DNA of 64,000 nucleotides from Eubacteriales bacterium (GTDB lineage: Bacteria; Bacillota; Clostridia; Oscillospirales; CAG-272): the NCBI GenBank assembly GCA_045652135.1, contig JAZRTS010000155.1, positions 1,765 through 65,764 on the forward strand. Direction: 5' to 3'. Positions 12,957 to 36,764 of this stretch are shown here, in pieces. Positions within the stretch are counted from its first letter, which is position 1. Each line of letters starts with the position of its first letter. The notes under the pieces were generated by a model, which saw only the letters and a program-made list of their open reading frames with translations, was not told where the DNA came from and did no database searches. The translations under genes were made by a program, and so were the position numbers.

Positions 12957-13047
12957 GGAGGGATGTCCGAGCGGTTTAAGGAGCTGGTCTTGAAAACCAG
13001 TGACTCGTTCACTCGAGCCGTGAGTTCGAATCTCACTCCCTCCGCCA
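12957..13047 (+). tRNA. tRNA-Ser (anticodon TGA), type II, encoded CCA
   Basis: Acceptor GGAGGGA/TCCCTCC, anticodon stem-loop CTGGT-CTTGAAA-ACCAG, long variable arm, T-loop TTCGAAT. Confidence 0.92.
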
Positions 13048-13084
13048 ACTTTACAACAAAAAAAGAATAAAAGATCCTCACCGT

Positions 13085-13175
13085 GGAGAAGTACTCAAGC
13101 TGGTGAAGAGGCGCCCCTGCTAAGGGTGTAGGGCGGGAAACCGTCGCGAGAGTTCAAATCTCTCCTTCTCCGCCA
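13085..13175 (+). tRNA. tRNA-Ser (anticodon GCT), type II, encoded CCA
   Basis: Acceptor GGAGAAG/CTTCTCC, anticodon loop CTGCTAA, long variable arm, T-loop TTCAAAT. Confidence 0.92.
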
Positions 13176-15483: not shown

Positions 15484-15574
15484 TCATACGCAAAAATGCA
15501 GAATATATCTTTTTTGTAGCCCATAGACAGAAAAAAGCACACATTTGTCTATCAAGACAATGTGTGCTTTTTTC
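15484..15574 (+). repeat. Direct repeat copy 1 (~91 bp, contains a terminator-like hairpin)
   Basis: TCATACGCAAA...AGAAAAAAGCACACATTTGTCTATCAAGACAATGTGTGCTTTTTTC. By eye it is roughly three-quarters identical to 16397-16486. Confidence 0.6.
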
Positions 15575-15577
15575 AAC

Positions 15578-15756
15578 GAAATTTGCCCTGCGGGCAAGTG
15601 AAATAGCTTCGCTGTGAAATATTTGCTTTGCAGATGTGAAATATTCGCTGACGCGAATGTGGGCAAATTTCATTTCACATTGCTACGAAGGAGCAATATT
15701 TCACAATGTGCGATAGCACATTATTTCACATTCGGCAACGCCGAATATTTCACTTG
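15578..15756. repeat. Hairpin-array element C: 10-mer GTGAAATATT, 3 forward then 3-4 reverse copies (AATATTTCAC), separated by short unique hairpins
   Basis: Forward copies at 15598, 15614 and 15636. Reverse copies at 15672 (partial), 15695, 15720 and 15744. Spacers include TGC-ttt-GCA, AATGTGC-gata-GCACATT and CGGC-aac-GCCG. GAAATTTGCCC (15579) has its complement GGGCAAATTTC at 15661. The last copy abuts the -35 of the 15805 gene promoter. Confidence 0.65.
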
Positions 15757-15782
15757 AAAAACGAACGGTTTTATGATATAAT
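15754..15782 (+). promoter_or_regulatory. Promoter of the 15805 gene
   Basis: TTGAAA (15754-15759), 17-nt spacer, TGATATAAT extended -10 (15774-15782). Confidence 0.55.
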
Positions 15783-15804
15783 AACGGCAGAAAGGCGGGG
15801 GAAT

Positions 15805-16344
15805 ATGAAGAAACAAATATTGACTAAATATGATGTTCAAAAAGAACTGCTTACGAGATTAAACAAGCTTAAAGGCATTTCTGTATTTTTAACCTCTATC
15901 GTAATCGTTTGTATAATTCTTTACCCAATACACCTTATAAATTATTTGGACGATGCACCTTTTGATTATACGGGTATAAGAAGATTTCCTGACCTTACAC
16001 CGGTGGTTGTGATGTTCATTATGCCGCTTTTGATAATATTTTTTGTCATTAGCGTTTTTTACTTGTATTACATAGATCTGTATAAAATCAAAAAAGGCAA
16101 ATTTGAAATTATAGAAGATACAGTTTATCAAAAAGACAAGGAATGGCGGTTTTATTACAAAAATTCACAAAAAGAAAATTCACTATATTTTCATTGCGGC
16201 AGAGTGGCGGTTGAAGATGAAGTGTATTCATATTCTGATATAGGAGATAATTTTTATATTGTGATGTTGAAATCAAAATTAAAATCAAAAAACAATCCTC
16301 GCTTAGCATATCATACAAAACATTATGAAATGGATTTAAATTGA
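15805..16344 (+). CDS. Hypothetical membrane protein (2 TM helices + ~90-aa soluble C-terminal domain)
   Basis: Start moved from 15706 to the in-frame ATG at 15805 (MKKQILTKYD; G-rich SD GGCGGGGG). The upstream part of the track ORF is made of the array-C repeats and precedes the promoter. Confidence 0.7.
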   Translation: MKKQILTKYDVQKELLTRLNKLKGISVFLTSIVIVCIILYPIHLINYLDDAPFDYTGIRRFPDLTPVVVMFIMPLLIIFFVISVFYLYYIDLYKIKKGKFEIIEDTVYQKDKEWRFYYKNSQKENSLYFHCGRVAVEDEVYSYSDIGDNFYIVMLKSKLKSKNNPRLAYHTKHYEMDLN

Positions 16345-16692: not shown

Positions 16693-17412
16693 ATGCCAAA
16701 AATTATCTGTAAAATCGCCGATATAGTCACAGAAGTGCCTTCTTCGGGCGGTATGGAGCTGCGATGTGGGGATTATATTTATAACGGCGATGAATTGCCC
16801 GATATTATAATCGATGAGGGCAAATATCACCCTGAAAAATACGGGTGCAATTTTTCTGCTGATAATATAGCATATATGGAGTCTGCACGGCAATTTTATA
16901 CACAGCTTTTACATAGAGACGGTTTTTATTTACATGCTTCGGCTGTTGAGCTTGACGGACAAGCTTATCTTTTCTCCGGTAAAAGCGGTATCGGAAAATC
17001 AACACATACACGCCTGTGGCAGCAGTTTTTCGGTGACAGGGTTCATATCTTTAACGATGACAAGCCTGCACTCAGGTTTATCGACGGAAAATGGTATGCA
17101 TACGGCACTCCCTGGTGCGGAAAAGACGGTATCAATAAAAACGTAAAGGTGCCTCTTGCAGGAATATGTTTTTTAAAACAGTCGGTGCGTAACGAAATAC
17201 GTCGCATTTCTACCCTTGAAGCAATACCAAGGATAACGTCACAGACGATATACAAGTTCAGAGACACGGAACGGCTCGAACTTTTGCTCGGACATCTTGA
17301 CAAATTACTTACGATAGTTCCGATATATGAGCTTGAAAATAAGCCGGAAAAAGAAGCTGTGCTTTTAAGTTATAATACTATGCGGCGCGGTGCGGAGGAA
17401 AGCAATTTATGA
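16693..17412 (+). CDS. HPr-kinase-C-terminal-like P-loop kinase (HprK-related, peptide/protein-modification type)
   Basis: LHASAVELDGQAYLFSGKSGIGKSTHTRLW P-loop block characteristic of the Hpr_kinase_C fold. 239 aa, with no HPr-kinase N-terminal domain. Confidence 0.75.
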   Translation: MPKIICKIADIVTEVPSSGGMELRCGDYIYNGDELPDIIIDEGKYHPEKYGCNFSADNIAYMESARQFYTQLLHRDGFYLHASAVELDGQAYLFSGKSGIGKSTHTRLWQQFFGDRVHIFNDDKPALRFIDGKWYAYGTPWCGKDGINKNVKVPLAGICFLKQSVRNEIRRISTLEAIPRITSQTIYKFRDTERLELLLGHLDKLLTIVPIYELENKPEKEAVLLSYNTMRRGAEESNL

Positions 17413-17687
17413 AATTAAGTGAAAATTTTGTGTTGAAGCAGGTTGCAGGATCATACATAGTGCTTCCTATAGGTGGCTCAATAGTTGATTTTAACGGTAT
17501 GCTCACGCTTAACGAGTCGGGTGTTCTTCTGTGGAACACTCTCAAGCAAGGATGTGATATCGAAGGGCTTGTTGATGCGCTTACGACCGAATACAAGGTG
17601 TCGCGCGAAGTAGCGCGTGACGATATAAATGAATTTTTAACTAAACTGGCAAATGCCGGATGTATAGAAGGAGCGCTTGATGAATAA
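17409..17687 (+). CDS. PqqD-family protein (RiPP recognition element-type peptide chaperone)
   Basis: 92 aa. FVLKQVAGSYIVLP...LTLNESGVLLWNTLKQGCDIEGLVDALTTEYKVSREVARDDINEFLTKLANAG matches the PqqD pattern. ATGA overlap with the kinase gene. Confidence 0.85.
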   Translation: MKLSENFVLKQVAGSYIVLPIGGSIVDFNGMLTLNESGVLLWNTLKQGCDIEGLVDALTTEYKVSREVARDDINEFLTKLANAGCIEGALDE

Positions 17688-18108
17688 GGTACTGTTAATA
17701 TTGCTGGCCGCGACGCTTATCCTTGCCGGTGTATCTTGTGTAAGGGCGGATGATGCGAAGGGAGATTCTTCGGAATCGACAGATAAAGCTGTAACTTGTA
17801 TAGATACGGATGATACCGGCGAAAAAGAGGAAGATCGTGCAACTGAAGACGAAACCCAAAACTTTACTGCAGAGTCTGATTCCGCTGACTCTGTTGTAAC
17901 GAAAACCCCGGATGAAATGCCTAACATTACTTATGAAGATTATATTAACATGACGGCGCAGCAACAGACTGACTTTATAAAAAGCTTTTCATCCGTTGGA
18001 AAATTTACCGAATGGTATAATGCCGCTAAATCAAAGTATGATATAGACAACGATAAAATATATATTGGTGAGGAAAGTATCGATTTAGGGGATATTTTCA
18101 ACAAGTGA
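17677..18108 (+). CDS. Secreted acidic protein with a conserved 59-aa C-terminal module (candidate substrate of the cassette)
   Basis: Signal MMNKVLLILLAATLILAGVSCVRA|DD, then a D/E/T-rich linker. The C-terminal TYEDYINM...EWYNAAKSKYD...IDLGDIFNK is shared with the 24637-25224 product. The start lies 11 nt inside the PqqD gene. Confidence 0.75.
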   Translation: MMNKVLLILLAATLILAGVSCVRADDAKGDSSESTDKAVTCIDTDDTGEKEEDRATEDETQNFTAESDSADSVVTKTPDEMPNITYEDYINMTAQQQTDFIKSFSSVGKFTEWYNAAKSKYDIDNDKIYIGEESIDLGDIFNK

Positions 18109-18143
18109 AATGTATTACTTGGCAGATGAAAGGAGATATAACT

Positions 18144-18644
18144 GTGAAAAAAAATATTCCATCGCCTGCCAAGTCACGTTTTATATTTCTTGACGATTTG
18201 ATACCTGTGATTCAAGAGCAGATAGATGCAGGACGCAACGTAAAGTTTTCACCGCGTGGAGTAAGTATGCTTCCTATGCTGAGGCAGGGAATTGACAGTG
18301 TTGAGCTGTCAGGTGCGCCCGAGCGGCTGGAAAAATACGATATTGTGCTTTACCGCAGAGACAGTGGGCAGTACGTGCTTCACAGAATAGTCGGTATAAA
18401 TGGGACGTATACGTGCATAGGCGATGCCCAATTTGATAAGGAATTCGGAATCAGACGCGATCAGATAATTGCAGTTGTGACATCGTTTTACAGAGGAGGG
18501 CGACACCGTTCCGTTAAAAATGTTTTATACCGTTTGTACTGCCGCATATGGCATTACAGCAGGGGAATAAGACGTTTTATAAAGAACTTGGCCGGATGGC
18601 TTAAACGACACGTGAGCGCATTATTTTCTCATTCGGAGAAGTAA
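18144..18644 (+). CDS. S24/S26-family serine peptidase, apparently soluble, with an ER/SipW-type Ser-His motif pair
   Basis: SPRGVSMLPML (nucleophile Ser box) and YVLHRIVGINGTYTCIGD (His where bacterial SPase I and LexA have Lys). Start taken at GTG 18144 (AAAGGAG SD, 8-nt spacing). An alternative GTGA-overlap start exists at 18105. Confidence 0.7.
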   Translation: MKKNIPSPAKSRFIFLDDLIPVIQEQIDAGRNVKFSPRGVSMLPMLRQGIDSVELSGAPERLEKYDIVLYRRDSGQYVLHRIVGINGTYTCIGDAQFDKEFGIRRDQIIAVVTSFYRGGRHRSVKNVLYRLYCRIWHYSRGIRRFIKNLAGWLKRHVSALFSHSEK

Positions 18645-18647
18645 TTT

Positions 18648-19829
18648 ATGGATATTATAAAACAAGGTATTTTAATACTTATAAAAAGTGCCGTTTTGGG
18701 GAAAGCGTTAAAACTTCCCGACGGTTTTTCACTTGATGAGGCATTTACTGCCATTGCGGAGCACCGTATTATTTCTATGGCTTATACGGGCGCTGTTAAT
18801 TGCGGAATTCCTCTTTCATTGCCCATAATGCAAAAAATGCTTTTTTACAGTGCTAAGCTGATGATGATATCGGAAAAGCAGATGCAGGCTGTGGAAAAAG
18901 TTAGCAAGATCTTTTCTGAAAATGAAATAGATCATATGCCTGTCAAAGGCTGTATTATGAAAACGCGTTATCCCACACCTGCGCTTCGATATATGGGAGA
19001 TGCGGACATTTTGATACGCAAAGAACAATATGATAAAATTTCTCCCATAATGGAAAAGCTCGGTTTTTCCATTGAAGAAGAATGTGACCATGTTTTTGTG
19101 TGGAAATCGCAGGAGCTTTTGCTTGAGCTTCACGTGAAGCTGATACCGTCAAGTGAGCATCTGCTTTATGAGTATCTCGGCGACGGTTGGAGATTAGCGA
19201 AAGAAAAGAACGGCTATTGCTATGCAATGACTAAAGAAGATGAATTTATATTTTCATTTATTCATTTTGTAAAGCATTACCGTGACAGCGGCATAGGATG
19301 CCGTCACGTGGTTGACCTATGGATAATGGACAGACTTTTCGATGATGACAGCCGCGCGTATATCAAAAGAGAACTCACAAAGATGCGCCTTGACATTTTT
19401 TATGAAAATATGGTGCGCGTTATAAAAAGTTGGTTCGAAGACGGTGAAAGTGACATCATTACCGAACATATAACACAGTTTATATTTTCCTGCGGCAACT
19501 GGGGGCAAGCCAAGACGCAAGCAATGGCGCGGCAAATGCTCACGGTAGATACGGATGATCCAAAGAAAATGAGCAGAAAATTACTGTTAAAGGACATATT
19601 TCCACCGCGTGAGAGGATAAAGGGAGAATATCCGATACTCGAAAAGGCACGGTTTATGTTGCCTTTTGTGTGGATATGGCGTATAATCAAAACAGTGATA
19701 TTTAAACGTGACAGCGTTCGCCGTTCGGTCAAAAGGGCATCACTGCTGAATGAACAGGCAGTAAACGATTTCAGACAAAATCTCAAAATCGTTGGTCTTG
19801 AACCGAATACGAGGGTGGATCGAAAATAA
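18648..19829 (+). CDS. PF14907-like (NTP_transf_5) uncharacterised nucleotidyltransferase family protein
   Basis: 393 aa. IDHMPVKGCIMKTRYPTPALRYMGDADILIRKEQYDKISPIMEKLGF...LLELHVKL matches the family pattern. Starts 4 nt after the peptidase stop. Confidence 0.75.
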   Translation: MDIIKQGILILIKSAVLGKALKLPDGFSLDEAFTAIAEHRIISMAYTGAVNCGIPLSLPIMQKMLFYSAKLMMISEKQMQAVEKVSKIFSENEIDHMPVKGCIMKTRYPTPALRYMGDADILIRKEQYDKISPIMEKLGFSIEEECDHVFVWKSQELLLELHVKLIPSSEHLLYEYLGDGWRLAKEKNGYCYAMTKEDEFIFSFIHFVKHYRDSGIGCRHVVDLWIMDRLFDDDSRAYIKRELTKMRLDIFYENMVRVIKSWFEDGESDIITEHITQFIFSCGNWGQAKTQAMARQMLTVDTDDPKKMSRKLLLKDIFPPRERIKGEYPILEKARFMLPFVWIWRIIKTVIFKRDSVRRSVKRASLLNEQAVNDFRQNLKIVGLEPNTRVDRK

Positions 19830-19872: not shown

Positions 19873-21165
19873 TCAAGAAGCTTTAATTGCGATATCGGTC
19901 ATAACTGTATTCGCTCTGTATGACCATACACCGAAGTAACCGTCTTTGTTGACCACTGCAGAGCCTGAATATACGATTCTGTTGTTATGATCTCGTACAA
20001 CAGCCTGATCGTATTCCTCGCTCAAGTGTATACTGCAGATCATATATTTGTTGCCGTCGGATGAGTACATATAGTATTTTATAACATCGCCGGCATCAAC
20101 AACAACGAGCTTGTGAGCTGTGGAGCAATCCTCGGGAAGTGTAACGAATGACGGTCTGTAATTCCAAGAATATCTGTCGCCGCCTCTGCCAAAGAACAAT
20201 GATGCTTGCTTTGTTCCGTTAAAGGCAAGATAAATTCCGCCGGGATCTCTTGCAGTCTTACGCTTGTCTGTGATTCTGACACCGACGAAGGAAGCATCTG
20301 TAGGCTCTGTTGAGTCTGCTATCTCACTTGTTGATGTGAGAGTCAAATGGAATTCATACTGGCTGTATTCTTTTCCGGGTTCATACTTCTGGCTGAGAGC
20401 AAGTGTGCCTTCCTTTGAGGGCTGTTCAAATATAACTGTGGAATTTTCTGCAATGACAGCCTTGTCATCTGACGGAGCTGTGTAAATGTCGAGCATTGCG
20501 GGGTTAGGCATCGTGGCAGGGTTAGGTCTGTAAGCGCGGACAAAATTGCCTATCGGCTCTGTGAAGGGCTGGGGGCCTTTTGTACCGTTGATTCTTTCAT
20601 TTGATCCGCCGTCATATCTTTTGTTGGTGCCTGCACACATAAATACGTGCGCGGGGTTACCTTTGGCATCGGGATTTACAAATACGATGTCACCCGCTTT
20701 GATGTTTCTTGTGCTTTCGATAAGCTCAAAATCGTGTTCTTCAAAATATCTGTAAAGGTTCAAGCCGTGGCGGTAATCCTGATCGATAAATCCTGCACGG
20801 AAAAGTATCCACGATACCATTCTGTCACATGCAACGATTCTTTCCTTGGGGTTTATTGCTTCTTTTGCATTGAGTGTACGCCAGTTGATAGCGGGGTTTA
20901 TTTCCGCATCTCCGTATATGAAGTTGTTGTCACGTATGAAGTCAGCAACAACCTTACCCTCTGTCATAAGTCTTTCAACAAGCTCCTCGTATGTAGGCGG
21001 AGTCCACTCATCAACAACGGGCGGTTCAGCTTCTGTAACAACATCTGTTGTTTCTGCATCTGTTGCTTGTTCGCTGCCGTTTGTTGTATCATCATTGCTT
21101 CCTCCGCAGGAGAGCATGGATAATGCGCAAATTAAACAAAGCGCACGAAGTAAAAATTTTTTCAT
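19873..21165 (-). CDS. Paralog family member 1: lipoprotein, papain-fold (Cys-His-Asp) domain + ConA/LamG-like beta-sandwich
   Basis: Signal ...CALSMLSCGG. Blocks RIVACDRMVSWILFRAGF, IKAGDIVFV, AHVFMCAGTNKRYDGGS. C-terminal domain ends DGYFGVWSYRANTVMTDIAIKAS. Confidence 0.8.
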   Translation of the reverse strand: MKKFLLRALCLICALSMLSCGGSNDDTTNGSEQATDAETTDVVTEAEPPVVDEWTPPTYEELVERLMTEGKVVADFIRDNNFIYGDAEINPAINWRTLNAKEAINPKERIVACDRMVSWILFRAGFIDQDYRHGLNLYRYFEEHDFELIESTRNIKAGDIVFVNPDAKGNPAHVFMCAGTNKRYDGGSNERINGTKGPQPFTEPIGNFVRAYRPNPATMPNPAMLDIYTAPSDDKAVIAENSTVIFEQPSKEGTLALSQKYEPGKEYSQYEFHLTLTSTSEIADSTEPTDASFVGVRITDKRKTARDPGGIYLAFNGTKQASLFFGRGGDRYSWNYRPSFVTLPEDCSTAHKLVVVDAGDVIKYYMYSSDGNKYMICSIHLSEEYDQAVVRDHNNRIVYSGSAVVNKDGYFGVWSYRANTVMTDIAIKAS

Positions 21166-21276
21166 TGTGTATCATCCTTTATCTTTTATTGGGTAATACC
21201 CTTGGAAAATTATATACTATAAGAGAAGCTATGTCAATAACAATGTTTGAATAATTTTTTACTTAAATATATGCAG

Positions 21277-21310
21277 TGAAAAAAACGGTCACAGCTTTGC
21301 GCTGTGGCCG
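21277..21310 (-). terminator. Terminator of paralog 2
   Basis: CGGTCACAGC-tttgc-GCTGTGGCCG, with a T-run on the minus strand. Confidence 0.7.
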
Positions 21311-21324
21311 TTTTGATATGAGCT

Positions 21325-22611
21325 TTAAGAAGCTTTGAGTGCAATATCGGTTATATTTGTGTTTGCTTTGTATGACCATACACCGAAATAACCCTCTTGG
21401 TTTATCGTTGTAGAGCCTGAATATACGATCTTACCGCTATGGTCACGGGCTACTGCCTGATTGTATTCCTCGCTGATGTGTATAGTGCAAATGAGGTATT
21501 CTGTGCCGTCTTCGAGATACATATAGTACTTGATAACATCACCTGTGTCAACAACGGCTATCTTGTGCGCTGTTGTAAATGTTTCGGGCAGAGTGATAAC
21601 GGAAGCAGTGTCATACCAACGGTGTCTGTTGTCCTGCTGTCCGAAGAAGAGACCTGCCTTGTTCGTGCCGTTGAGTGAAAGGAAGATTCCGCCGGGCTCT
21701 CTTGCGTTTTTGCGCTTCTCAGTCATTCTTACACCTATGTACGATGCTTCGCTTATCTCCGTTGAACCTGCGTTTTCACTTGTTGATGTAAGTGAAAGGT
21801 GAAGCTCATACTGGCTGTATTCTTTTCCGGGATCGCAAAGAGGATTGAGGGAAAGTGTGCCTTCTTTTTTATCCTGCTCATAAATCACGGTAGAATTACC
21901 GCTTACGGTTGCAACGTCGTCTGCAGGGACGTCATATATCTTCAGCATAGACGGATTTGGCATTTTTTCAGGACTCGGTCTGTAAGCGCGGACAAAATTG
22001 TTTATCGGCTCTGTGAAAGGCTGAGGACCTTTTGAACCGTTGATTCTTTCGTTTGAACCGCCGTCATATCTCTTATTAGGGCCGGCGCACATAAATACGT
22101 GCAAGGGGTTGCCGTTTGCATCGGGGTTTACGAATACTATATCTCCTGCCTTGATAGATCTTGTGTTTTCAACACGCTCAAAGCCGTGTGTATCGAAATA
22201 TTCATAAAGGTCTATGCCGTGGCGGTAATCCTGATCGATAAATCCTGCGCGGAAAAGTATCCAGGAAACGAGTCTGTCGCAAGCAACGATCCTCTCATTG
22301 GGGTCTATTGCTTCGTTTGCGTTGAGTGTGCGCCAGTTGATTGCAGGGTTTATCTGCGCATCGCCGTATATGAATTTGTTGTCGCGTACAAAATCCGCAA
22401 CGATCTTGCCTTCTGCCATGAGAATATCAACAAGCTCCTCGTATGTAGGGGGAGTCCAGTTGTCGACAACAGGTACATCTGCTTCTGTTGTCGGTGCTGT
22501 TGTTTCCGCCGATGTATCTGACGGTGCTGATGTGTCTGCGTTGTTGCCTGAGCAAGAGAACATTGACAGAGCACATATCAAACAAAGTGTACGTAACAAT
22601 AATTTTTTCAT
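21325..22611 (-). CDS. Paralog family member 2: lipoprotein, papain-fold domain + ConA/LamG-like beta-sandwich
   Basis: Collinear with member 1 throughout and highly similar to it (RIVACDRLVSWILFRAGF, LHVFMCAGPNKRYDGGS, EGYFGVWSYKANTNITDIALKAS). Confidence 0.8.
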   Translation of the reverse strand: MKKLLLRTLCLICALSMFSCSGNNADTSAPSDTSAETTAPTTEADVPVVDNWTPPTYEELVDILMAEGKIVADFVRDNKFIYGDAQINPAINWRTLNANEAIDPNERIVACDRLVSWILFRAGFIDQDYRHGIDLYEYFDTHGFERVENTRSIKAGDIVFVNPDANGNPLHVFMCAGPNKRYDGGSNERINGSKGPQPFTEPINNFVRAYRPSPEKMPNPSMLKIYDVPADDVATVSGNSTVIYEQDKKEGTLSLNPLCDPGKEYSQYELHLSLTSTSENAGSTEISEASYIGVRMTEKRKNAREPGGIFLSLNGTNKAGLFFGQQDNRHRWYDTASVITLPETFTTAHKIAVVDTGDVIKYYMYLEDGTEYLICTIHISEEYNQAVARDHSGKIVYSGSTTINQEGYFGVWSYKANTNITDIALKAS

Positions 22612-22729
22612 TATGATATATCCTTTTCTTTGGAAATTGGGAATTATCCCACTAAATTATATACTATGCCGTGCTTATTTGTCAATAGCAATATATAAAG
22701 AAAAAAATAATACTTAGCCAAGATAATTT

Positions 22730-22784
22730 GAAAAATAAAAAATGAGGCGGCTCATTTTGAGAATTGTTCCCAAGACGAGCCGCC
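22730..22784 (-). terminator. Terminator of paralog 3
   Basis: GGCGGCTC...GAGCCGCC long hairpin, with a T-run on the minus strand. The sequence resembles the hairpin at 33253-33290. Confidence 0.6.
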
Positions 22785-22901
22785 ACGTAAGTTCTTTTAA
22801 AATATTTTTCTGTGGTTTTTAACCGATTTATACATTTTGAAAAAGACGCCAGATGTGTCCCATATATTTCCTTAGATGAGACGGTTCCGTTTCAAAGTGC
22901 G

Positions 22902-24347
22902 TTAGGTTGCTTTTTTAATTGAGATGTTTGTTTGCGAAGTGTTGACATAATATTCCCAGGTGCTGAAATATCCCACCTGCTCGTATGTTCCTCTGCCTGA
23001 ATAAATAAACTTATTATTGTGGTCACGCACCGAGATGACATCGTATTCGGTGTTGATATTTATACTGCATATCAGATATTCTGCACCTGCTGATGTGTAC
23101 ATAAAATATTTTATCGTATTACCAGCATCGACAACAACTATCTTGTGAAGTGATGCTAAAGATTCGGGAAGTGCGATCTTTGCAAGAGGCTTGTACCAAA
23201 GCATACCTTCGCCGTGGTTTTCTTCCGAACAGCCTATACCTGTGTAAAGATATGCGTACGGTTCGTTACGGAATCCGAGCCAAAGACCGCCGTATTCTGT
23301 AGGTGAGTGTCCTGCCTTGGGAAGACGCGCGCCGACATACAGGCAGTTTCCTGCGTTCATCGAATCTGCTGTTGCGGAAACGTTCAAATGGAATTCATAC
23401 TGTGAATTAAAAGGATTATATCTGTAGTTCGCCGCAACATTTCCGTTGCTGTTTGCGGTGGTGTAAACTGTTGTTGTTGAAGCGGCAGGACGTGCGATAT
23501 TTGCTGTAGGTGTATTGTATATTTCCTTCAAAGAGGATTTGGGTAAGCCTGCGGGGTTGGGACGCCAAGCGTATGTAAAGCTTGAAATTCCTTCACGGAA
23601 CGGCTCTGTTGTTCCGTTAACGTAGGAATAAGCGCCTGTTCTCTGTATTCTTTCGATGGAGCCGTGGTCATATCTGAGGTTTGTACCTGCGCAAATGAAC
23701 TGATGCTCGCCGTTGAGTACGAGAACTATATCGCCTCTGCGTACATCGTTTACGTTTGTTATTTTTTCAAACTTGAATCTTTCGTAGTCAGATTCGCTGA
23801 ATCCGCCTCTGTAGAATCGCTGATCTGTATATCCTGCACGGTGGTATGCCCAGCTTACAAGGCGGTTACATGCAGATGCTCTTTCGCCGTCGATCGTTTC
23901 GTTGATGTTGAGATTCAGCCAGTTATATGCGGGATTGAGCTGTGCATCGCCGTATATAAAATTGTTATCGTCTGTGAATTTAACTATCTTTGCTGCTTCT
24001 TCGATGATTTTTTCTACAAGCTGGCTGTATGTGGGAGCGTTTTCGTCGGTGGGTACTTCGCAATGCTCACCGTAATAATTACGCAGTGCAATTATGTCAG
24101 ATCTTGTGATAGAGCCGTCACCGTTTATATCCACTTTTGCATCATAGGGGAAAAGTGCGGGCTTACGTATGTATTTCATAACACGTACGGCATCTTTTCC
24201 GTTAACGATACCGTCACGGTTAACGTCACAGTCAGATACCATAACAGCGGCAGACGTTCCGAAAAGATTCGGGAGTGATACCGCACCGACTATCATAAGC
24301 GCTGACAGACATATGCCGATGACCTTGAAAAGTTTGCTGTTTTTCAT
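22902..24347 (-). CDS. Paralog family member 3: signal peptide + type-I dockerin + papain-fold domain + beta-sandwich
   Basis: Dockerin Ca-binding repeats DVNRDGIVNGKD and DINGDGSITRSD (about 24063-24236). Blocks ASACNRLVSWAYHRAGY, HQFICAGTNLRYDHGS, VGYFSTWEYYVNTSQTNISIK. Confidence 0.82.
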   Translation of the reverse strand: MKNSKLFKVIGICLSALMIVGAVSLPNLFGTSAAVMVSDCDVNRDGIVNGKDAVRVMKYIRKPALFPYDAKVDINGDGSITRSDIIALRNYYGEHCEVPTDENAPTYSQLVEKIIEEAAKIVKFTDDNNFIYGDAQLNPAYNWLNLNINETIDGERASACNRLVSWAYHRAGYTDQRFYRGGFSESDYERFKFEKITNVNDVRRGDIVLVLNGEHQFICAGTNLRYDHGSIERIQRTGAYSYVNGTTEPFREGISSFTYAWRPNPAGLPKSSLKEIYNTPTANIARPAASTTTVYTTANSNGNVAANYRYNPFNSQYEFHLNVSATADSMNAGNCLYVGARLPKAGHSPTEYGGLWLGFRNEPYAYLYTGIGCSEENHGEGMLWYKPLAKIALPESLASLHKIVVVDAGNTIKYFMYTSAGAEYLICSININTEYDVISVRDHNNKFIYSGRGTYEQVGYFSTWEYYVNTSQTNISIKKAT

Positions 24348-24559
24348 TTTGTGATTCCTCGCTTTTGTACTGATTTAGATCGCTTGCTTATGAAAATGCA
24401 AGGAAATTTGTGATATATTTCCTTGCAAATATATGCAATAACAACTCATTACAGTATACACATCAAAATCTGTTTTGTCAACACTATTTAATATAATAAA
24501 TGGTATTTAATGATTTTTTGTACTTTTTGCATAATAATTGCGCTTTATATATGTTAATA

Positions 24560-24597
24560 AAGACTATAAAGGTCGGCAATGTAATATGCCGACCTTT
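24560..24597 (-). terminator. Putative terminator of the 25260-26549 / 24637-25224 pair
   Basis: AAAGGTCGGCA-atgtaata-TGCCGACCTTT. The stem is nearly identical to the one at 26675-26700. Confidence 0.5.
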
Positions 24598-24636
24598 AAT
24601 TAAGCTTTTGAAGCAGAGTATCGGAACGGATACTCC

Positions 24637-25224
24637 TTATTTACCGAAAATGTCACCGAGGTCGATGGTGTCATCGCCTATGTCTACATTTCCGTTATTC
24701 TTGTCATATTCTGCCTTTGCCGCATTGTACCATTCTATAAATTTACTGAGTGAAGGGAAATTTTTGATGAATTCCGTTTGTTCATTGGGAGACATATTGA
24801 TGTAGTCCTTGTAAGTGTACTCGGAAGGATCAAATTTTTCAGGTTCGGTTTCGGGCGCGGTTGTATCTTCGGGTGCTGTTTCGGGCGGTTCTACTTCAAT
24901 TACGGGATCATCGAGTATTTCGCACGTCTGACCGTAATATGAATACACTTGAGCAATGTCATTGTTATCAATAATTCCGTCACCGTTGACATCGGCTTTT
25001 TCGGGAAAGTAATAATCGTCGGTGAGAATATACTTCATTATGCGTATGACATCTTTGCCGTTTATGATACCGTCACGCGTCACATCACATAATGATATCG
25101 GATCTTCATTTGGTGGCTCAATTTCATCCCACGTTGCGAAAACGCTCGGAAGTAATGCCGCGCCGATCGTGATTAAAGCGGAGAAGCATATAATGACAGA
25201 CTTGAAAAAAACATATTTTTTCAT
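24637..25224 (-). CDS. Signal peptide + type-I dockerin + Pro/Glu/Thr linker + the conserved 59-aa C-terminal module (no catalytic domain)
   Basis: Dockerin DVTRDGIINGKD / DVNGDGIIDNND (about 24931-25092). C-terminal TYKDYINMSPNEQTEFIKNFPSLSKFIEWYNAAKAEYDKNNGNVDIGDDTIDLGDIFGK aligns without gaps to the end of the 17677-18108 product. Confidence 0.8.
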   Translation of the reverse strand: MKKYVFFKSVIICFSALITIGAALLPSVFATWDEIEPPNEDPISLCDVTRDGIINGKDVIRIMKYILTDDYYFPEKADVNGDGIIDNNDIAQVYSYYGQTCEILDDPVIEVEPPETAPEDTTAPETEPEKFDPSEYTYKDYINMSPNEQTEFIKNFPSLSKFIEWYNAAKAEYDKNNGNVDIGDDTIDLGDIFGK

Positions 25225-25259
25225 ATTTCACATTTCCTCGATTTAAAAAACATAACAAA

Positions 25260-26549
25260 TTAATTTGCTTTTATTACGATGTCAGAGGTTATTGTTTTTG
25301 CTCCGTGCGACCACACACCGAAATAACCGAAATCATTCAAAACGGCTGTACCTGCATATATGATATTGTTGTCGCTGTCGCGCACTACTATCTGGTCATA
25401 CTCTGCGCTCACACGTATCGTGCATATCAGTATCTCCTCGCCCGAGGTTGTATACATATAGTATTTGATAACGTCGCCCGTGTCTACAACGACTACTTTA
25501 TGAGCAGATTTGAAATTTTCGGGCAATTTTACAGATGCAACAGGTTCGTTCCATATTTTCGCCTTCGCGCCGCATCCAACGTATAAGCAAGCCTCGTTTT
25601 CTCCTCGCAGAGCGATAAAAATACCGCCGGGCTCTGTTGCATTTTTTCGTCTTTCGGTAAGCCTTGCGCCTACAAACGATGCTTTCCACGGGCTGTTGTC
25701 ATTGACTTCCGAATACGATGTGAGATTAAAATGAAATTCGTATTGTCCGTATTCCTTTCCGGGCTCGTACGATTCGGAAATTGTCAGCGTTCCTTCTTTT
25801 TCGCCGCTTTCGAAAACGGTTTTTGCATCTGCCGATATCTTTGCGGAGTCTTTGTCGGCAGGCTCATATATTTCAAGCATTGACGGATCCGGCATATAAT
25901 CGGGCGAAGGTCTGTAAGCACGGACAAAATTGTTTACAGGCTCGTTGAACGGCTGAGGGCCTTTCGTGCCGTTTATTCTTGCGTCACTTCCACCGTCATA
26001 TCTCAAGTTCTTTCCCGCACATATAAATACGTGTCCGGGAACACCGTTTGCATCGGGATTAACGAAAACGATGTCTCCTGCCTGTAACTCTTTTACCGAG
26101 TCTACCCTTTGAAATCCGTGCTCGTTGAAATAATCTTCAAGATCGATACCGAAATAGTAATCCTGATCGATAAATCCCGAACGGAACATTATCCAGTTTA
26201 CAAGTCTGTCGCAGGCGACTATTCTTTCTTCGGGCTTTATAGCATCCTTCGGGTCAAGCGTGCGCCAGTTAACAGCAGGATTTATTATTGCGTGTCCGTA
26301 TATGAAATCGTTGTCACGTATAAAGTCCGCAACTATCTTGCCCTCACGCATCATTATTTCAACAAGCTCCTCATAAGTCGGACGCTTCCATTCGGTAACG
26401 TCATTATCCTCGGGAGCAGTAGTGTCTTGTGTGGTTTCAGCAGGCGCTGTATCGCTTTCAGCGTGAGATGTTTCCGTTTGATTGCCTGTGCACGAAAAAA
26501 GAGAAGCGGCGCATAGCAAACAAACACATTTTAATATGATTTTTTTCAT
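25260..26549 (-). CDS. Paralog family member 4: lipoprotein, papain-fold domain + beta-sandwich
   Basis: Start moved to the ATG at 26549 (MKKIILKCVCLLCAASLFSCTG; AAAGGA SD). Blocks RIVACDRLVNWIMFRSGF, GHVFICAGKNLRYDGGS, FGYFGVWSHGAKTITSDIVIKAN. Confidence 0.8.
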   Translation of the reverse strand: MKKIILKCVCLLCAASLFSCTGNQTETSHAESDTAPAETTQDTTAPEDNDVTEWKRPTYEELVEIMMREGKIVADFIRDNDFIYGHAIINPAVNWRTLDPKDAIKPEERIVACDRLVNWIMFRSGFIDQDYYFGIDLEDYFNEHGFQRVDSVKELQAGDIVFVNPDANGVPGHVFICAGKNLRYDGGSDARINGTKGPQPFNEPVNNFVRAYRPSPDYMPDPSMLEIYEPADKDSAKISADAKTVFESGEKEGTLTISESYEPGKEYGQYEFHFNLTSYSEVNDNSPWKASFVGARLTERRKNATEPGGIFIALRGENEACLYVGCGAKAKIWNEPVASVKLPENFKSAHKVVVVDTGDVIKYYMYTTSGEEILICTIRVSAEYDQIVVRDSDNNIIYAGTAVLNDFGYFGVWSHGAKTITSDIVIKAN

Positions 26550-26667
26550 AAATACAAGTCCTTTGTAATATTTAAACTTATTTTTTAATATAAGTATACA
26601 CTCAAATTCCCGTTTTGTCAATATGTATGATACCGTGTGAGGCTGGTGCTGTATTTGCTTCGGCTTC

Positions 26668-26700
26668 AGAAAATAAAGGTCGGCGATTTCGCCGACCTTT
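26668..26700 (-). terminator. Terminator of paralog 5
   Basis: AAAGGTCGGCG-attt-CGCCGACCTTT, with a T-rich tract on the minus strand. Confidence 0.65.
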
Positions 26701-26708
26701 GATGAAGA

Positions 26709-28208
26709 TTATTTTTTAGCACACTGTATGGATATATTGGACTGGGTTGAATTTGAAAGATGAGTCCATACACCGAAATAACCCGTGTGTCCGATCTCTG
26801 TAAGACCTGCATAAATGAATTTGCCGGAGTTGTCACGAATACAAATTGTATCATAATCAGGGGATACCTTGATACTGCATATTAGGTAAGTATCTCCCGG
26901 GTTATGCGTCACCATATAGTATTTGATGACGTCACCCGTATCTACGACCATGATCTTATGCTCTTGCGTTAGCGGCTCCGGTACACGTGTTGAAGCAAGC
27001 GGCTCGTACCAAGCGTTTCCGAAACCGTCATTTCCTGATCCTCTCTGACCCTTGGAACAGCCTGTGCCTGTGTAGAAGTATACGTAACCGTCATCACGCA
27101 GAGCTATCCAGATACCGCCTTTGTTTGTGGGGTTATGGTTGGGATAAGGCAAACGAACGCCGACGTATGTCGAGCTTGACGGACTGCGGTCGCTTGTTGA
27201 AGGCGAAGATGAGATGTTCAAATGCAATTCGTAGTTTGCGTTGTAGGGATTGTAAGCAAAGTTGAACTGTCTTGAGCCTGAACCGTTAGCTGCTGTGTAA
27301 ACAGTATCGGTGTTCGGTGCGGGACGTGCTATGTTAGCATCGGGAGTTTTATAAATATTTGCTACCGATGTTGCGGGAAGTCCTTCGGGATTGGGACGCC
27401 ATGCGTATGAGAAGTTGCGTATCGATTCTCTGAACGGCTCGGTTGTATTTTCAACGTAAGCGTATGCGCCTATACGCTGAATACGCTCAACGCTTCCGTG
27501 GTCATATCTGAGGTTGGGGCCTGCGCAGATGAACTGGTGCAGAGTGTTGTTTACAAGCACTATATCGCCTGCTCTTACATCGTTTACGTTTGTTATCTTT
27601 GTGAACTTGTATCTTGCGTAATCTGCATCGGTAAATCCGCCGTAGTAGAATCTCTGATCAGAATAGCCCGCACGGTGGAATACCCAGCTTACAAGACGGT
27701 CGCAGGCGGAACGTGTGCCTGTTACAAAGGACTTATCAAGACCTTCGTCATAATTAAGATTGAGCCAGTTGTATGCAGGGTTTATTACCGCATCGCCGTA
27801 GTTGAAGCCGTAATTGTTAGTGAACTCCGTTACCTTTTTTGCTTCCTCGAGTATCTTTGCAACGAGCTGATCGTATGTAGGCTTCGGCTTTTCCACTTCA
27901 ATTACACGGTCGGGAAGTATTTCGCATGTCTGACCGTAGAAGGAACGTATTGCCACAACGTCCGCAGAGTTGATAGTTCCGTCTCCGTTTACATCTGCCT
28001 TGTCGGGGAAATAGTAATCGTCTGTGTGGATGTATTTCATTACACGTATCATATCTTTTCCGTTTATAATACCGTCACGGTTTACGTCACAGTCGGTAAC
28101 AACAACGGCTGCGGATATGCCGAATAAATTCGGGAGCGATATAGCACCCAGAATAAACACAACGGAAAGACAGATTCCGAGTGTCCTATAAAGTCTGCTG
28201 TTCTTCAT
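26709..28208 (-). CDS. Paralog family member 5: signal peptide + type-I dockerin + papain-fold domain + beta-sandwich
   Basis: Start moved to the ATG at 28208 (MKNSRLYRTLG; AAAGGAG SD). Dockerin DVNRDGIINGKD / DVNGDGTINSAD (about 27933-28094). Blocks RSACDRLVSWVFHRAGY, HQFICAGPNLRYDHGS, TGYFGVWTHLSNSTQSNISIQ. Confidence 0.82.
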   Translation of the reverse strand: MKNSRLYRTLGICLSVVFILGAISLPNLFGISAAVVVTDCDVNRDGIINGKDMIRVMKYIHTDDYYFPDKADVNGDGTINSADVVAIRSFYGQTCEILPDRVIEVEKPKPTYDQLVAKILEEAKKVTEFTNNYGFNYGDAVINPAYNWLNLNYDEGLDKSFVTGTRSACDRLVSWVFHRAGYSDQRFYYGGFTDADYARYKFTKITNVNDVRAGDIVLVNNTLHQFICAGPNLRYDHGSVERIQRIGAYAYVENTTEPFRESIRNFSYAWRPNPEGLPATSVANIYKTPDANIARPAPNTDTVYTAANGSGSRQFNFAYNPYNANYELHLNISSSPSTSDRSPSSSTYVGVRLPYPNHNPTNKGGIWIALRDDGYVYFYTGTGCSKGQRGSGNDGFGNAWYEPLASTRVPEPLTQEHKIMVVDTGDVIKYYMVTHNPGDTYLICSIKVSPDYDTICIRDNSGKFIYAGLTEIGHTGYFGVWTHLSNSTQSNISIQCAKK

Positions 28209-28485
28209 AAGCAGTATCTCCTTTCGCACGGGCGGTATTTTCCGCCGTATTTTGACGCTTAATTTTACACTATAAAAGAAATTTTGTCAACAATGCAAAA
28301 TAATTAGAAATATAACAAACGGATTAATATATATATAAAGTATGAACTTTGGAGTGCTTTACGGTGGTTTTGTTGTGATAAATGCACAAAATTTTAAACG
28401 GTGATTTTGTGTATTTGCTGAATTTCATATTTTTTTTATTGCGGTAAAACGCTGTGGTTGATACTGCCTTGTTCACATAAAACTA

Positions 28486-36525: not shown

Positions 36526-36599
<74 letters not shown>

Positions 36600-36606
36600 T
36601 TTTTAT

Positions 36607-36683
36607 GTACCCATAGCTCAGCCGGATAGAGCAACTGCCTTCTAAGCAGTAGGTCGGGGGTTCGAATCCCTCTGGGTACGCCA
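36607..36683 (+). tRNA. tRNA-Arg (anticodon TCT)
   Basis: Acceptor GTACCCA/TGGGTAC, anticodon loop CTTCTAA, T-loop TTCGAAT, CCA encoded. Confidence 0.92.
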
Positions 36684-36686
36684 GAT

Positions 36687-36764
36687 GGTGGATATAGCGC
36701 AGTTGGTCAGCGCGTCAGGTTGTGGCCCTGAAGGTCGTCGGTTCGATCCCGATTATCCACCCCA
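36687..36764 (+). tRNA. tRNA-His (anticodon GTG) with encoded G-1
   Basis: Extra 5' G before acceptor GTGGATA/TATCCAC, anticodon loop TTGTGGC, T-loop TTCGATC, CCA encoded. Confidence 0.92.

Follow-up and report, generated by a model that had tools for sequence, protein, structure and literature searches.

Two copies of a C-terminal module in the window

A 64,000-nucleotide stretch of an Eubacteriales genome (Oscillospirales; contig JAZRTS010000155.1), hereafter the window, encodes two proteins that end in related modules of 59 residues. One is a lipoprotein-like precursor whose gene lies within a five-gene operon, where the other genes encode an ScmC/HprK-like P-loop protein, a PqqD-family protein of the type known as a RiPP recognition element (RRE; RiPPs are peptides made by ribosomes and modified after translation), a predicted peptidase of the S24/S26 clan and an NTP_transf_5 nucleotidyltransferase-family protein. 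We refer to this operon and its relatives as the cassette. The other protein carries a dockerin, and its gene resides on the opposite strand in an array of paralogs (Table 1).

The two modules align without gaps, with 36 of 59 residues identical and 49 of 59 positive (BLASTP E 3e-25), which makes exact the original prediction of about 36 identities. Translation of the two module intervals reproduces both sequences, and each forms the C terminus of its open reading frame (ORF). The corresponding DNA is identical at 113 of 177 positions, which points to an old duplication kept at the protein level and not to a recent repeat. No third copy is found when both modules are compared with the whole window by tblastn, and the next match (E 0.003) contains a stop codon. 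Comparison with a sister lineage indicates purifying selection on both modules, with omega at 0.12 for the copy-1 module as against 0.44 for the linker of that protein. It is exceedingly improbable that the similarity is a chance or low-complexity match, or that one of the ORFs is not a real gene. Beyond the alignment score and the low omega of the module, 603 representatives share an invariant Y2, F20 and W29, the sister lineage has both genes at the corresponding positions, and it is the linkers, not the module, that are low in complexity.

The copy-1 gene was originally predicted to span 17677-18108. Its stop codon stands, but ATG 17680 is a likelier start than the alternative TTG 17677. 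This ATG lies within the end of the PqqD gene, producing an 8-nucleotide overlap that takes in the PqqD stop codon. The encoded N terminus, MNKVLLILLAATLILAGVSC, includes a lipobox-like AGVSC with its Cys, which on the level of sequence pattern is that of a lipoprotein. An acidic linker separates this region from the module, as had been proposed. The full-length protein matches no Pfam or NCBIfam family, and its orthologue P0004 occupies the same operon position in loci L006-L009.

In the copy-2 protein, the module follows a dockerin and a Pro/Glu-rich linker, also as proposed. The dockerin is of type I (Pfam Dockerin_1 E 1.4e-8, 35.2 bits versus a cut-off of 22.9), and dockerin chains in PDB match it at E 3e-4. 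Its orthologue in L006, P0001, is 80% identical and occupies the corresponding place. The dockerin copy is best taken as an old duplicate whose anchor has been exchanged, tied to the cassette by common descent alone.

Table 1. Coordinates of features in the window, followed by gene orders and small peptide ORFs in related loci (L numbers)
Feature	Location	Strand	Description
ScmC-like/HprK-like P-loop protein	16693..17412	+	Walker A SGKSGIGKST; first operon gene
PqqD-family protein	17409..17687	+	Peptide-binding RRE-type chaperone; Pfam PqqD E 1.6e-17; weak lasso_PqqD NCBIfam matches
Cassette module protein (copy 1)	17680..18108	+	Lipoprotein-like precursor: signal peptide ending AGVSC, acidic disordered linker, C-terminal module
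Module copy 1, residues 1-42	17929..18054	+	Three-helix mini-domain TYEDYINMTAQQQTDFIKSFSSVGKFTEWYNAAKSKYDIDND
Module copy 1, residues 43-59	18055..18105	+	Conserved Asp/Gly-rich tail KIYIGEESIDLGDIFNK; family consensus IDIGDGxIDLGDIxGG
Predicted peptidase	18126..18644	+	S24/S26 clan (LexA/signal-peptidase fold); gene most tightly linked to module genes
NTP_transf_5 nucleotidyltransferase-family protein	18648..19829	+	Pfam PF14907 E 1.3e-35; last operon gene
Paralog array	19873-28229	-	Six genes: five paralogs of 428-506 amino acids and the dockerin-module protein
Second module protein (copy 2)	24637..25224	-	Signal peptide, type I dockerin, Pro/Glu-rich linker, C-terminal module; inside paralog array
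Module copy 2	24640..24816	-	Helical part 24691-24816, tail 24640-24690; 61% identical to copy 1
Gene order	L006-L009		ScmC-PqqD-module-peptidase-NTP_transf_5 (full set)
Gene order	L012		ScmC-PqqD-module
Gene order	L013		ScmC-PqqD-(172-amino-acid membrane protein)-module-peptidase
Gene order	L015		PqqD-module-peptidase
Gene order	L096, L098		ScmC-PqqD-module-peptidase
Gene order	L002		PqqD-module
Gene order	L001, L003, L005, L010		module-peptidase
Small peptide ORF	L010:3054-3152		
Small peptide ORF	L013:33-152		
Small peptide ORF	L017:5818-5916		
Small peptide ORF	L021:550-669		
Small peptide ORF	L025:3063-3176		
Small peptide ORF	L026:766-885		
Small peptide ORF	L044:463-600		
Small peptide ORF	L046:2419-2526		
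Small peptide ORF	L060:5437-5592		
Small peptide ORF	L096:7867-7995		MKEYIKPEVELIEFESEAVTSTPGMEGGDKPVTSGSLGGEWT
Small peptide ORF	L100:7174-7278		MKEYKKPDVELVLFQTENVTTIGGESNDDNTDLN

An unnamed family of tethered module proteins

The module belongs to a large unnamed family of proteins tethered to the cell surface, in which it forms the conserved C-terminal head. A phmmer search with copy 2 as query against 1.84 billion representatives (clusters at 50% identity) retrieves at least 603 protein clusters at E <= 1e-3, including 31 at E <= 1e-10. The best 150 of these 603 representatives, from which architectures were counted, are nearly all 110-270 amino acids long and begin with a signal peptide or membrane anchor, which a long spacer of acidic or Pro/Thr-rich composition connects to the module. 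The module reaches to within 0-2 residues of the C terminus in 120 of 139 full-length matches. Lipobox-like motifs are present in 73 of the 150 representatives, and other anchors include Dockerin_1 (P0065 and P0129, with P0014 matching weakly), S-layer homology (SLH) domains (P0148, and by similarity also members in L001, L002 and L005) and a weak choline-binding repeat. Some proteins (P0087, P0007, P0016 and P0129) contain two to four tandem copies, of the N-terminal part of the module only. A homologue search with a 50-sequence profile of the module returned 30 short fragments only, and copy 1 on its own retrieved none.

The family consensus is TYEEYxxMSpEEQxAFxxSFxSxxxFxxWYNAAKAEYExxNPxIDIGDGxIDLGDIxGG, within which Y2, F20 and W29 are invariant. 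AlphaFold2, supplied with a 50-sequence alignment, confidently predicts a core of three helices within residues 1-42 (residues 2-6, 10-18 and 23-41; predicted local distance difference test (pLDDT) 92-98). The tail, residues 43-59, is given pLDDT 52-59 although its sequence is conserved, so that according to the model it is probably unstructured on its own.

Neither module copy matches any Pfam family, even at E up to 10, and NCBIfam has no match to the module region. The precomputed Pfam assignment is likewise blank for every homologue. The best result of a PDB profile search with the module is an HMG box (E 0.025, ~24 residues), and a Foldseek comparison of the module model with PDB gives no fold match (best E 6.6). 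The module is thus not an already named domain, which had been a concern when it was first noticed, and the present work establishes it as a new domain family, made up of a helical core and a tail with defined boundaries and set in a conserved gene neighbourhood.

Several candidate relationships were considered and set aside. Weak HMG-box and NF-E2 matches in PDB searches were discarded as chance, and homology to Nif11/NHLP leader domains was dropped since there is no Pfam match. A ubiquitin-like GG C terminus is not tenable because GG is missing from the end of many members, both window copies among them, and the idea that the tail is a C-terminal Ser phosphorylation site was abandoned because the C-terminal residue is not conserved.

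The cassette and its small peptides

The five genes of the window operon are all on the + strand and overlap or are separated by gaps of at most 17 nucleotides. The first encodes a protein related to ScmC, although its scores against NCBIfam ScmC (TIGR04249, E 5.9e-8) and HprK_rel_A (E 0.009) are both under the curated cut-offs. Its homologues carry a precomputed PF27840:ScmC match, and comparison with PDB sequences yields generic P-loop matches only. All cassette enzymes are under purifying selection relative to the sister lineage (omega 0.09-0.14), and among the products of the window operon only the module protein is not an enzyme.

The peptidase gene presumably starts at ATG 18126, which fits the 172-residue NCBI annotation (identical protein P0191), and not at GTG 18105, from which the ORF would overlap the stop codon of the module gene. 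The family comprises 1651 homologues. The motifs GxSMxPML, VLHR and GDxQ are invariant, and S47 of the first and H86 of the second are so in an alignment of 34 sequences. Pfam Peptidase_S24 matches three of seven homologues (best E 1.8e-4). The AlphaFold2 model (pLDDT 85.8) is most similar according to Foldseek to SpsB, UmuD', LexA, SipA and the lambda cI C-terminal domain, with probabilities of ~1.0. Motifs and model together predict an S24/S26-clan (clan SF) enzyme of the Ser-His (SipW/ER) type. Because it has no N-terminal membrane anchor or signal peptide, this enzyme is probably cytoplasmic or peripheral and unable to cut a Sec signal peptide on the outer face of the membrane. A partial parallel is offered by the tapA-sipW-tasA operon of B. 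subtilis and the SipA gene of the S. pyogenes pilus locus, where an S26-clan gene is likewise next to that of a secreted surface protein. The cassette peptidase shares the catalytic motifs of the SipW/ER type (Ser, and His in VLHR), and SipA is among the Foldseek matches, but it differs in having no membrane anchor, and most cassettes do not have a module gene at all.

Genes for module proteins recur next to similar cassettes elsewhere, which bears out the co-occurrence with PqqD/kinase-like genes raised in the original prediction. Related loci come from metagenome-assembled genomes of Oscillospiraceae and 'Candidatus Flemingiibacterium' and from animal- and human-gut metagenomes; a genome scan using a nine-sequence subset of the module and the single pattern WYNAAKAE contributed five loci. 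Thirteen module genes were found independently of the cassette, all being reached via the module itself, and 11 of these adjoin a PqqD gene, an S24-like peptidase gene or both, often accompanied by NTP_transf_5 and ScmC/HprK-like genes. The remaining two (L004 and L097), which lie away from any cassette, encode module proteins of a dockerin or dockerin-like type, as does window copy 2. Where a contig extends past a cassette-type module gene, the peptidase gene is immediately next in nearly all cases. In the window, the module gene overlaps that of PqqD and is followed by that of the peptidase within 17 nucleotides, which is the operon adjacency expected of an RRE-dependent precursor, and module genes hold the matching operon position in L006-L009, L012, L013, L015, L020, L021, L036, L055, L060, L096, L098 and L100. 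The operon linkage of module genes to the PqqD/S24-like cassette, with or without ScmC and NTP_transf_5 genes, is therefore tight and recurrent, and the module probably works with this RiPP-like cassette. Our literature search found nothing on a PqqD/S24/NTP_transf_5 cassette or on the module.

The gene order is [small YxxPxL-leader peptide]-ScmC/HprK-like-PqqD-module protein-S24/S26-like peptidase-NTP_transf_5, with module genes optional. This arrangement comprises the kinase, RRE and nucleotidyltransferase set of Firmicute lasso peptide clusters, in which cyclase and B2 are replaced in position by the S24-like peptidase. The paeninodin (padeK), pseudomycoidin (psmK and psmN) and bsfK/bsfB1/bsfN clusters of Firmicutes and Bradymonadales likewise encode an HPr-kinase-like P-loop protein, a discrete PqqD-type RRE and an NTP_transf_5-type nucleotidyltransferase (PMC8498205, PMC10368454). 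In contrast to such clusters, Pfam scans of the cassette genes and larger window ORFs detect no lasso cyclase (Asn-synthetase-like C) or transglutaminase-like B2, and neither is present among the called genes of L006-L010, L096 and L098-L100. Lasso clusters also have no counterpart of the Sec-exported module protein, of 110-250 amino acids, that is encoded between RRE and peptidase. The cassette is probably an RRE-dependent lasso-like modification cassette, with an unprecedented embedded family of surface proteins.

SynChlorMet (Scm) and HPr-rel-A cassettes also pair a P-loop protein related to ScmC and HprK with a PqqD-family protein. The window protein nonetheless scores far under the equivalog cut-offs of these systems (32 bits versus 125, and 15 versus 200), and radical SAM/SPASM partners are absent. 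To our knowledge, module proteins and S24-like peptidases are not part of the Scm and HPr-rel-A definitions.

Small peptides encoded in sister cassettes strengthen the resemblance to lasso clusters. The YxxPxL leader motif of lasso precursors resides at positions -17 to -12 (PMC10368454). When lasso spacing is applied to the 11 small peptides in Table 1, Ile or Val falls at position -2 in eight, and the resulting cores are 12-29 residues long, acidic and Ser/Thr-containing. Sister cassettes thus share with lasso clusters the leader motif, a lasso-like spacing and the residue at -2, whereas the cores are not lasso-like. As judged from their sequences, these peptides look like an undescribed family of linear, cyclase-less lasso-like precursors. 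A cyclase-less lasso-like system is the best description of the cassette, with the S24-like enzyme presumably serving as its leader peptidase. L099 and L100 have ABC exporters beside the cassette, and in the former the S24-like peptidase is followed by an ABC exporter together with a C39-like peptidase.

Motif likenesses between the small peptides and module proteins take the form of anecdotes, not statistics, and suggest that a common partner may see both. Many module proteins, including P0036, P0093, P0107, P0084 and P0024, have a motif of the type [IV]PG[VIL]xDxxFD[DE]E (variants NPFGED, DGFEE and GVEEW) 20-30 residues past the anchor. Similar acidic-aromatic strings are found at the ends of the small peptides (..EGWD, ..GEWT, ..VEEW and ..NVFD). 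GVEEW is shared exactly within L021, where the peptide ends in ..SSGVEEW and the module protein has ..VPGVEEWPEE... Related ends also occur in other membrane or SLH proteins encoded by cassettes, namely ..GVGPLPDGWD in L010, ..DIGVGDNPFGG in L013, ..NDGIGDIGGIYEHPDP in L100 and ..NAPFDDSNVGEWH in L047.

Possible roles of the module protein

We tentatively propose that the cyclase-less lasso-like cassette has in the module protein a client that is optional and of protein size. The cassette enzymes are under selection in a lineage that has no small precursor, and therefore they need a substrate, for which the module protein is the only operon-encoded candidate. A search of the 64-kb window with a hidden Markov model of the leader, with filters off, detects no small peptide (best E 1.9), and none is present in L006-L009. 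In lasso clusters, an HPr-kinase homologue phosphorylates the precursor with stimulation by the RRE, and the nucleotidyltransferase adds hexoses (PMC8498205, PMC10368454).

If the module protein is such a client, the cassette copy would take the place of a small precursor in this window. Before or during Sec export, the cytoplasmic PqqD/peptidase pair might engage the conserved unstructured C-terminal tail, and possibly also the acidic-aromatic linker motif. The P-loop and nucleotidyltransferase enzymes would then decorate the protein, and the peptidase would trim it. Its long tether would present the product at the cell surface, in many cases together with capsule synthesis. In the dockerin copy, a cohesin scaffold would carry a head of the same kind, for which the cassette may not be required.

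Several observations weigh against this proposal. At least 11 lineages encode, directly upstream of ScmC, a peptide of 32-51 amino acids that starts with M-K-x-[YF]-x-[KA]-P-x-h, and the YxxPxL leader is absent from both window module proteins. As the module protein is a Sec/lipoprotein substrate and the four enzymes have no signal peptides, modification would need to come before export. The tail has no conserved Ser, Thr or Tyr as an obvious acceptor, and whereas phosphorylated lasso precursors end in Ser, the last residue of the module varies. Anchors that can be exchanged are also more typical of an extracellular binding head. The module genes themselves are often missing when cassettes are collected through the peptidase instead. 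A metagenome scan with the peptidase alignment yielded 80 loci, which after dereplication at 90% identity leave 37 lineages with enough upstream sequence to judge. The gene directly upstream of the peptidase encodes a module protein in eight of these, a PqqD protein abuts it in 26, and neither is found in three. In a human-gut group (L058:6691-8684 and ~35 near-identical loci among L057-L095) the order is groES-groEL-PqqD-peptidase-NTP_transf_5-DegV, with no ScmC, module gene or small peptide near the central trio, whose substrate must therefore be encoded elsewhere.

The core of the cassette is consequently PqqD-peptidase-NTP_transf_5, with ScmC and the module gene optional. Among peptidases that are at least 70% identical, module-positive and module-negative cassettes are intermixed, which suggests repeated gain or loss of the module gene and not a single frozen insertion. 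An apparent restriction of module genes to ScmC-positive cassettes (5 of 12 versus 0 of 32 loci) was not robust after dereplication and is contradicted by L001, L003, L005 and L010. The original prediction that the module is the prime candidate for the recognised or modified element is accordingly weakened; it is plausible but now has a serious competitor. It agrees with the position of the module protein as the only non-enzyme of the window operon, but not with the sister cassettes, at least 11 of which have a YxxPxL precursor, nor with the many cassettes that do not include a module gene. The alternative raised at the same time, that the module is a small head with a binding or adaptor function brought to a scaffold, is viable and is favoured by the interchangeable anchors.

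The chief alternative is that module proteins are accessory surface partners of the small YxxPxL peptides, although we consider this somewhat doubtful. The peptide would then be the true substrate, perhaps lost or encoded elsewhere in the lineage of the window, and the module protein would meet the exported product outside the cell, whether as a lipoprotein conferring immunity, as a receptor or sensor on a tether, or as an anchor holding the anionic peptide at the surface once it is mature. Small lipoproteins that confer immunity, NisI and SpaI among them, are a frequent feature of RiPP clusters and, like the module protein here, are encoded inside a peptide-modification operon. There is no relation to these in sequence or fold, however, as the module protein is mostly a disordered spacer with a 42-residue helical head. 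The anchor-spacer-head design, whether based on a lipobox, membrane helix, SLH domain or dockerin, implies that the head works outside the cell. Small peptide and module gene occur together in L010, L013, L021, L026, L060, L096, L098 and L100, and the lasso-type leader spacing of the peptides, like the ABC exporters of L099 and L100, is also consistent with a partner role. On the other hand, the window lineage keeps the module gene and four enzymes with no small peptide in 64 kb, module and peptidase form pairs without PqqD, ScmC, NTP_transf_5 or a detectable peptide in L001, L003 and L005, and cassettes with a peptide but no module gene are common (L017, L025, L044 and L046). Moreover, the module tail and linker motif resemble peptide cores and not a binding pocket.

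Capsule synthesis offers another context for the module. Module genes reside in capsule-type loci in L001, L002, L003, L005, L010, L036, L096 and L097, where we counted as capsule-type the genes for Wzz, CpsD, CpsB, sortase, LCP, Polysacc_synt_2, flippase and Stealth proteins. The module protein and peptidase might thus belong as a pair to surface polysaccharide loci, binding or organizing capsule or being co-processed with it, and the place of the module gene among PqqD, ScmC and NTP_transf_5 genes would then reflect shared regulation and not direct modification. We regard both parts of this explanation as unlikely. The module-peptidase pair is directly upstream of Wzz-CpsD-CpsB-sortase-LCP-Polysacc_synt_2 in L001, L003, L005 and L010, and L096 has the order NTP_transf_5 ... 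CpsB-Wzz-CpsD-peptide-ScmC-PqqD-module-peptidase. DegT and Wzz are downstream in L002, CpsB-Wzz-CpsD is upstream in L036, the gene of the dockerin-type member P0012 adjoins those of a Stealth phosphotransferase and a flippase, and L099 has NTP_transf_5-LCP-peptidase within a Wzy/LicD locus. By contrast, no polysaccharide genes accompany the cassette in the 64-kb window, whose surroundings are housekeeping genes, and cps genes are present in only 2 of 26 long loci collected through the peptidase, although most of these 26 represent one redundant human-gut lineage. A peptidase that looks cytoplasmic also has no obvious role on a surface polymer. Stretches in which the peptidase, with or without a module gene and NTP_transf_5, is embedded among capsule-type genes (here also Wzy and LicD) are L001:10198-18091, L010:4649-12541, L096:1-10132 and L099:1-12378.

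A broader form of the client proposal is doubtful but would accommodate both kinds of putative substrate. RiPP-type machinery, comprising the RRE chaperone, HprK-like P-loop enzyme, nucleotidyltransferase and S24-like peptidase, would have been recruited to modify whole Sec-exported surface proteins, with the 59-residue module serving as a protein-sized "follower" recognition domain and with tethered phospho- or glyco-decorated products acting together with capsule at the surface of gut and rumen Clostridia. Clients of this machinery would be either small peptides or module proteins, with core-like motifs in common. If module proteins are indeed clients or partners of the cassette, more than 600 unannotated protein clusters would acquire an initial functional handle, a very common uncharacterised PqqD-S24-NTP_transf_5 cassette of gut and rumen Clostridia would become testable, and recognition of the RiPP kind would reach beyond short peptides to surface proteins that are exported, perhaps in connection with capsule production. 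Even on a conservative reading, the sister cassettes contain a previously unnoticed set of cyclase-less lasso-like precursor peptides.

The paralog array does not appear to take part in any of these roles. The module was initially thought to link cassette and array physically, yet array homologues adjoin the cassette in L006-L009, the lineage of the window, but not in any of ~90 other cassette loci, and the dockerin-type genes of L004 and L097 are away from cassettes. Since the adjacency is lineage-specific, it provides no evidence of a functional link between array and cassette. The five array paralogs have no match in Pfam, NCBIfam or PDB sequences (one paralog was searched in the case of PDB). 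By eye, a Cys/His motif of papain- or NlpC-like type can be discerned (ACDRLVSW ... HVFMCAG), and two of the five have N-terminal dockerins.

Upstream of the cassette, the window contains a representative of the Gut-1 RNA motif (Rfam RF01706) at 15574-15647 (+), which scores 63.8 bits versus a gathering score of 50 (E 2.3e-10). It lies ~60 nucleotides upstream of an ORF at 15706-16344, itself just upstream of the cassette, that encodes a membrane protein of 212 amino acids with only a weak MAG1140_fam match. Transfer RNA genes, unrelated to the module, are also present in the window, two at 12957-13172 and three clustered at 36526-36761 (+).

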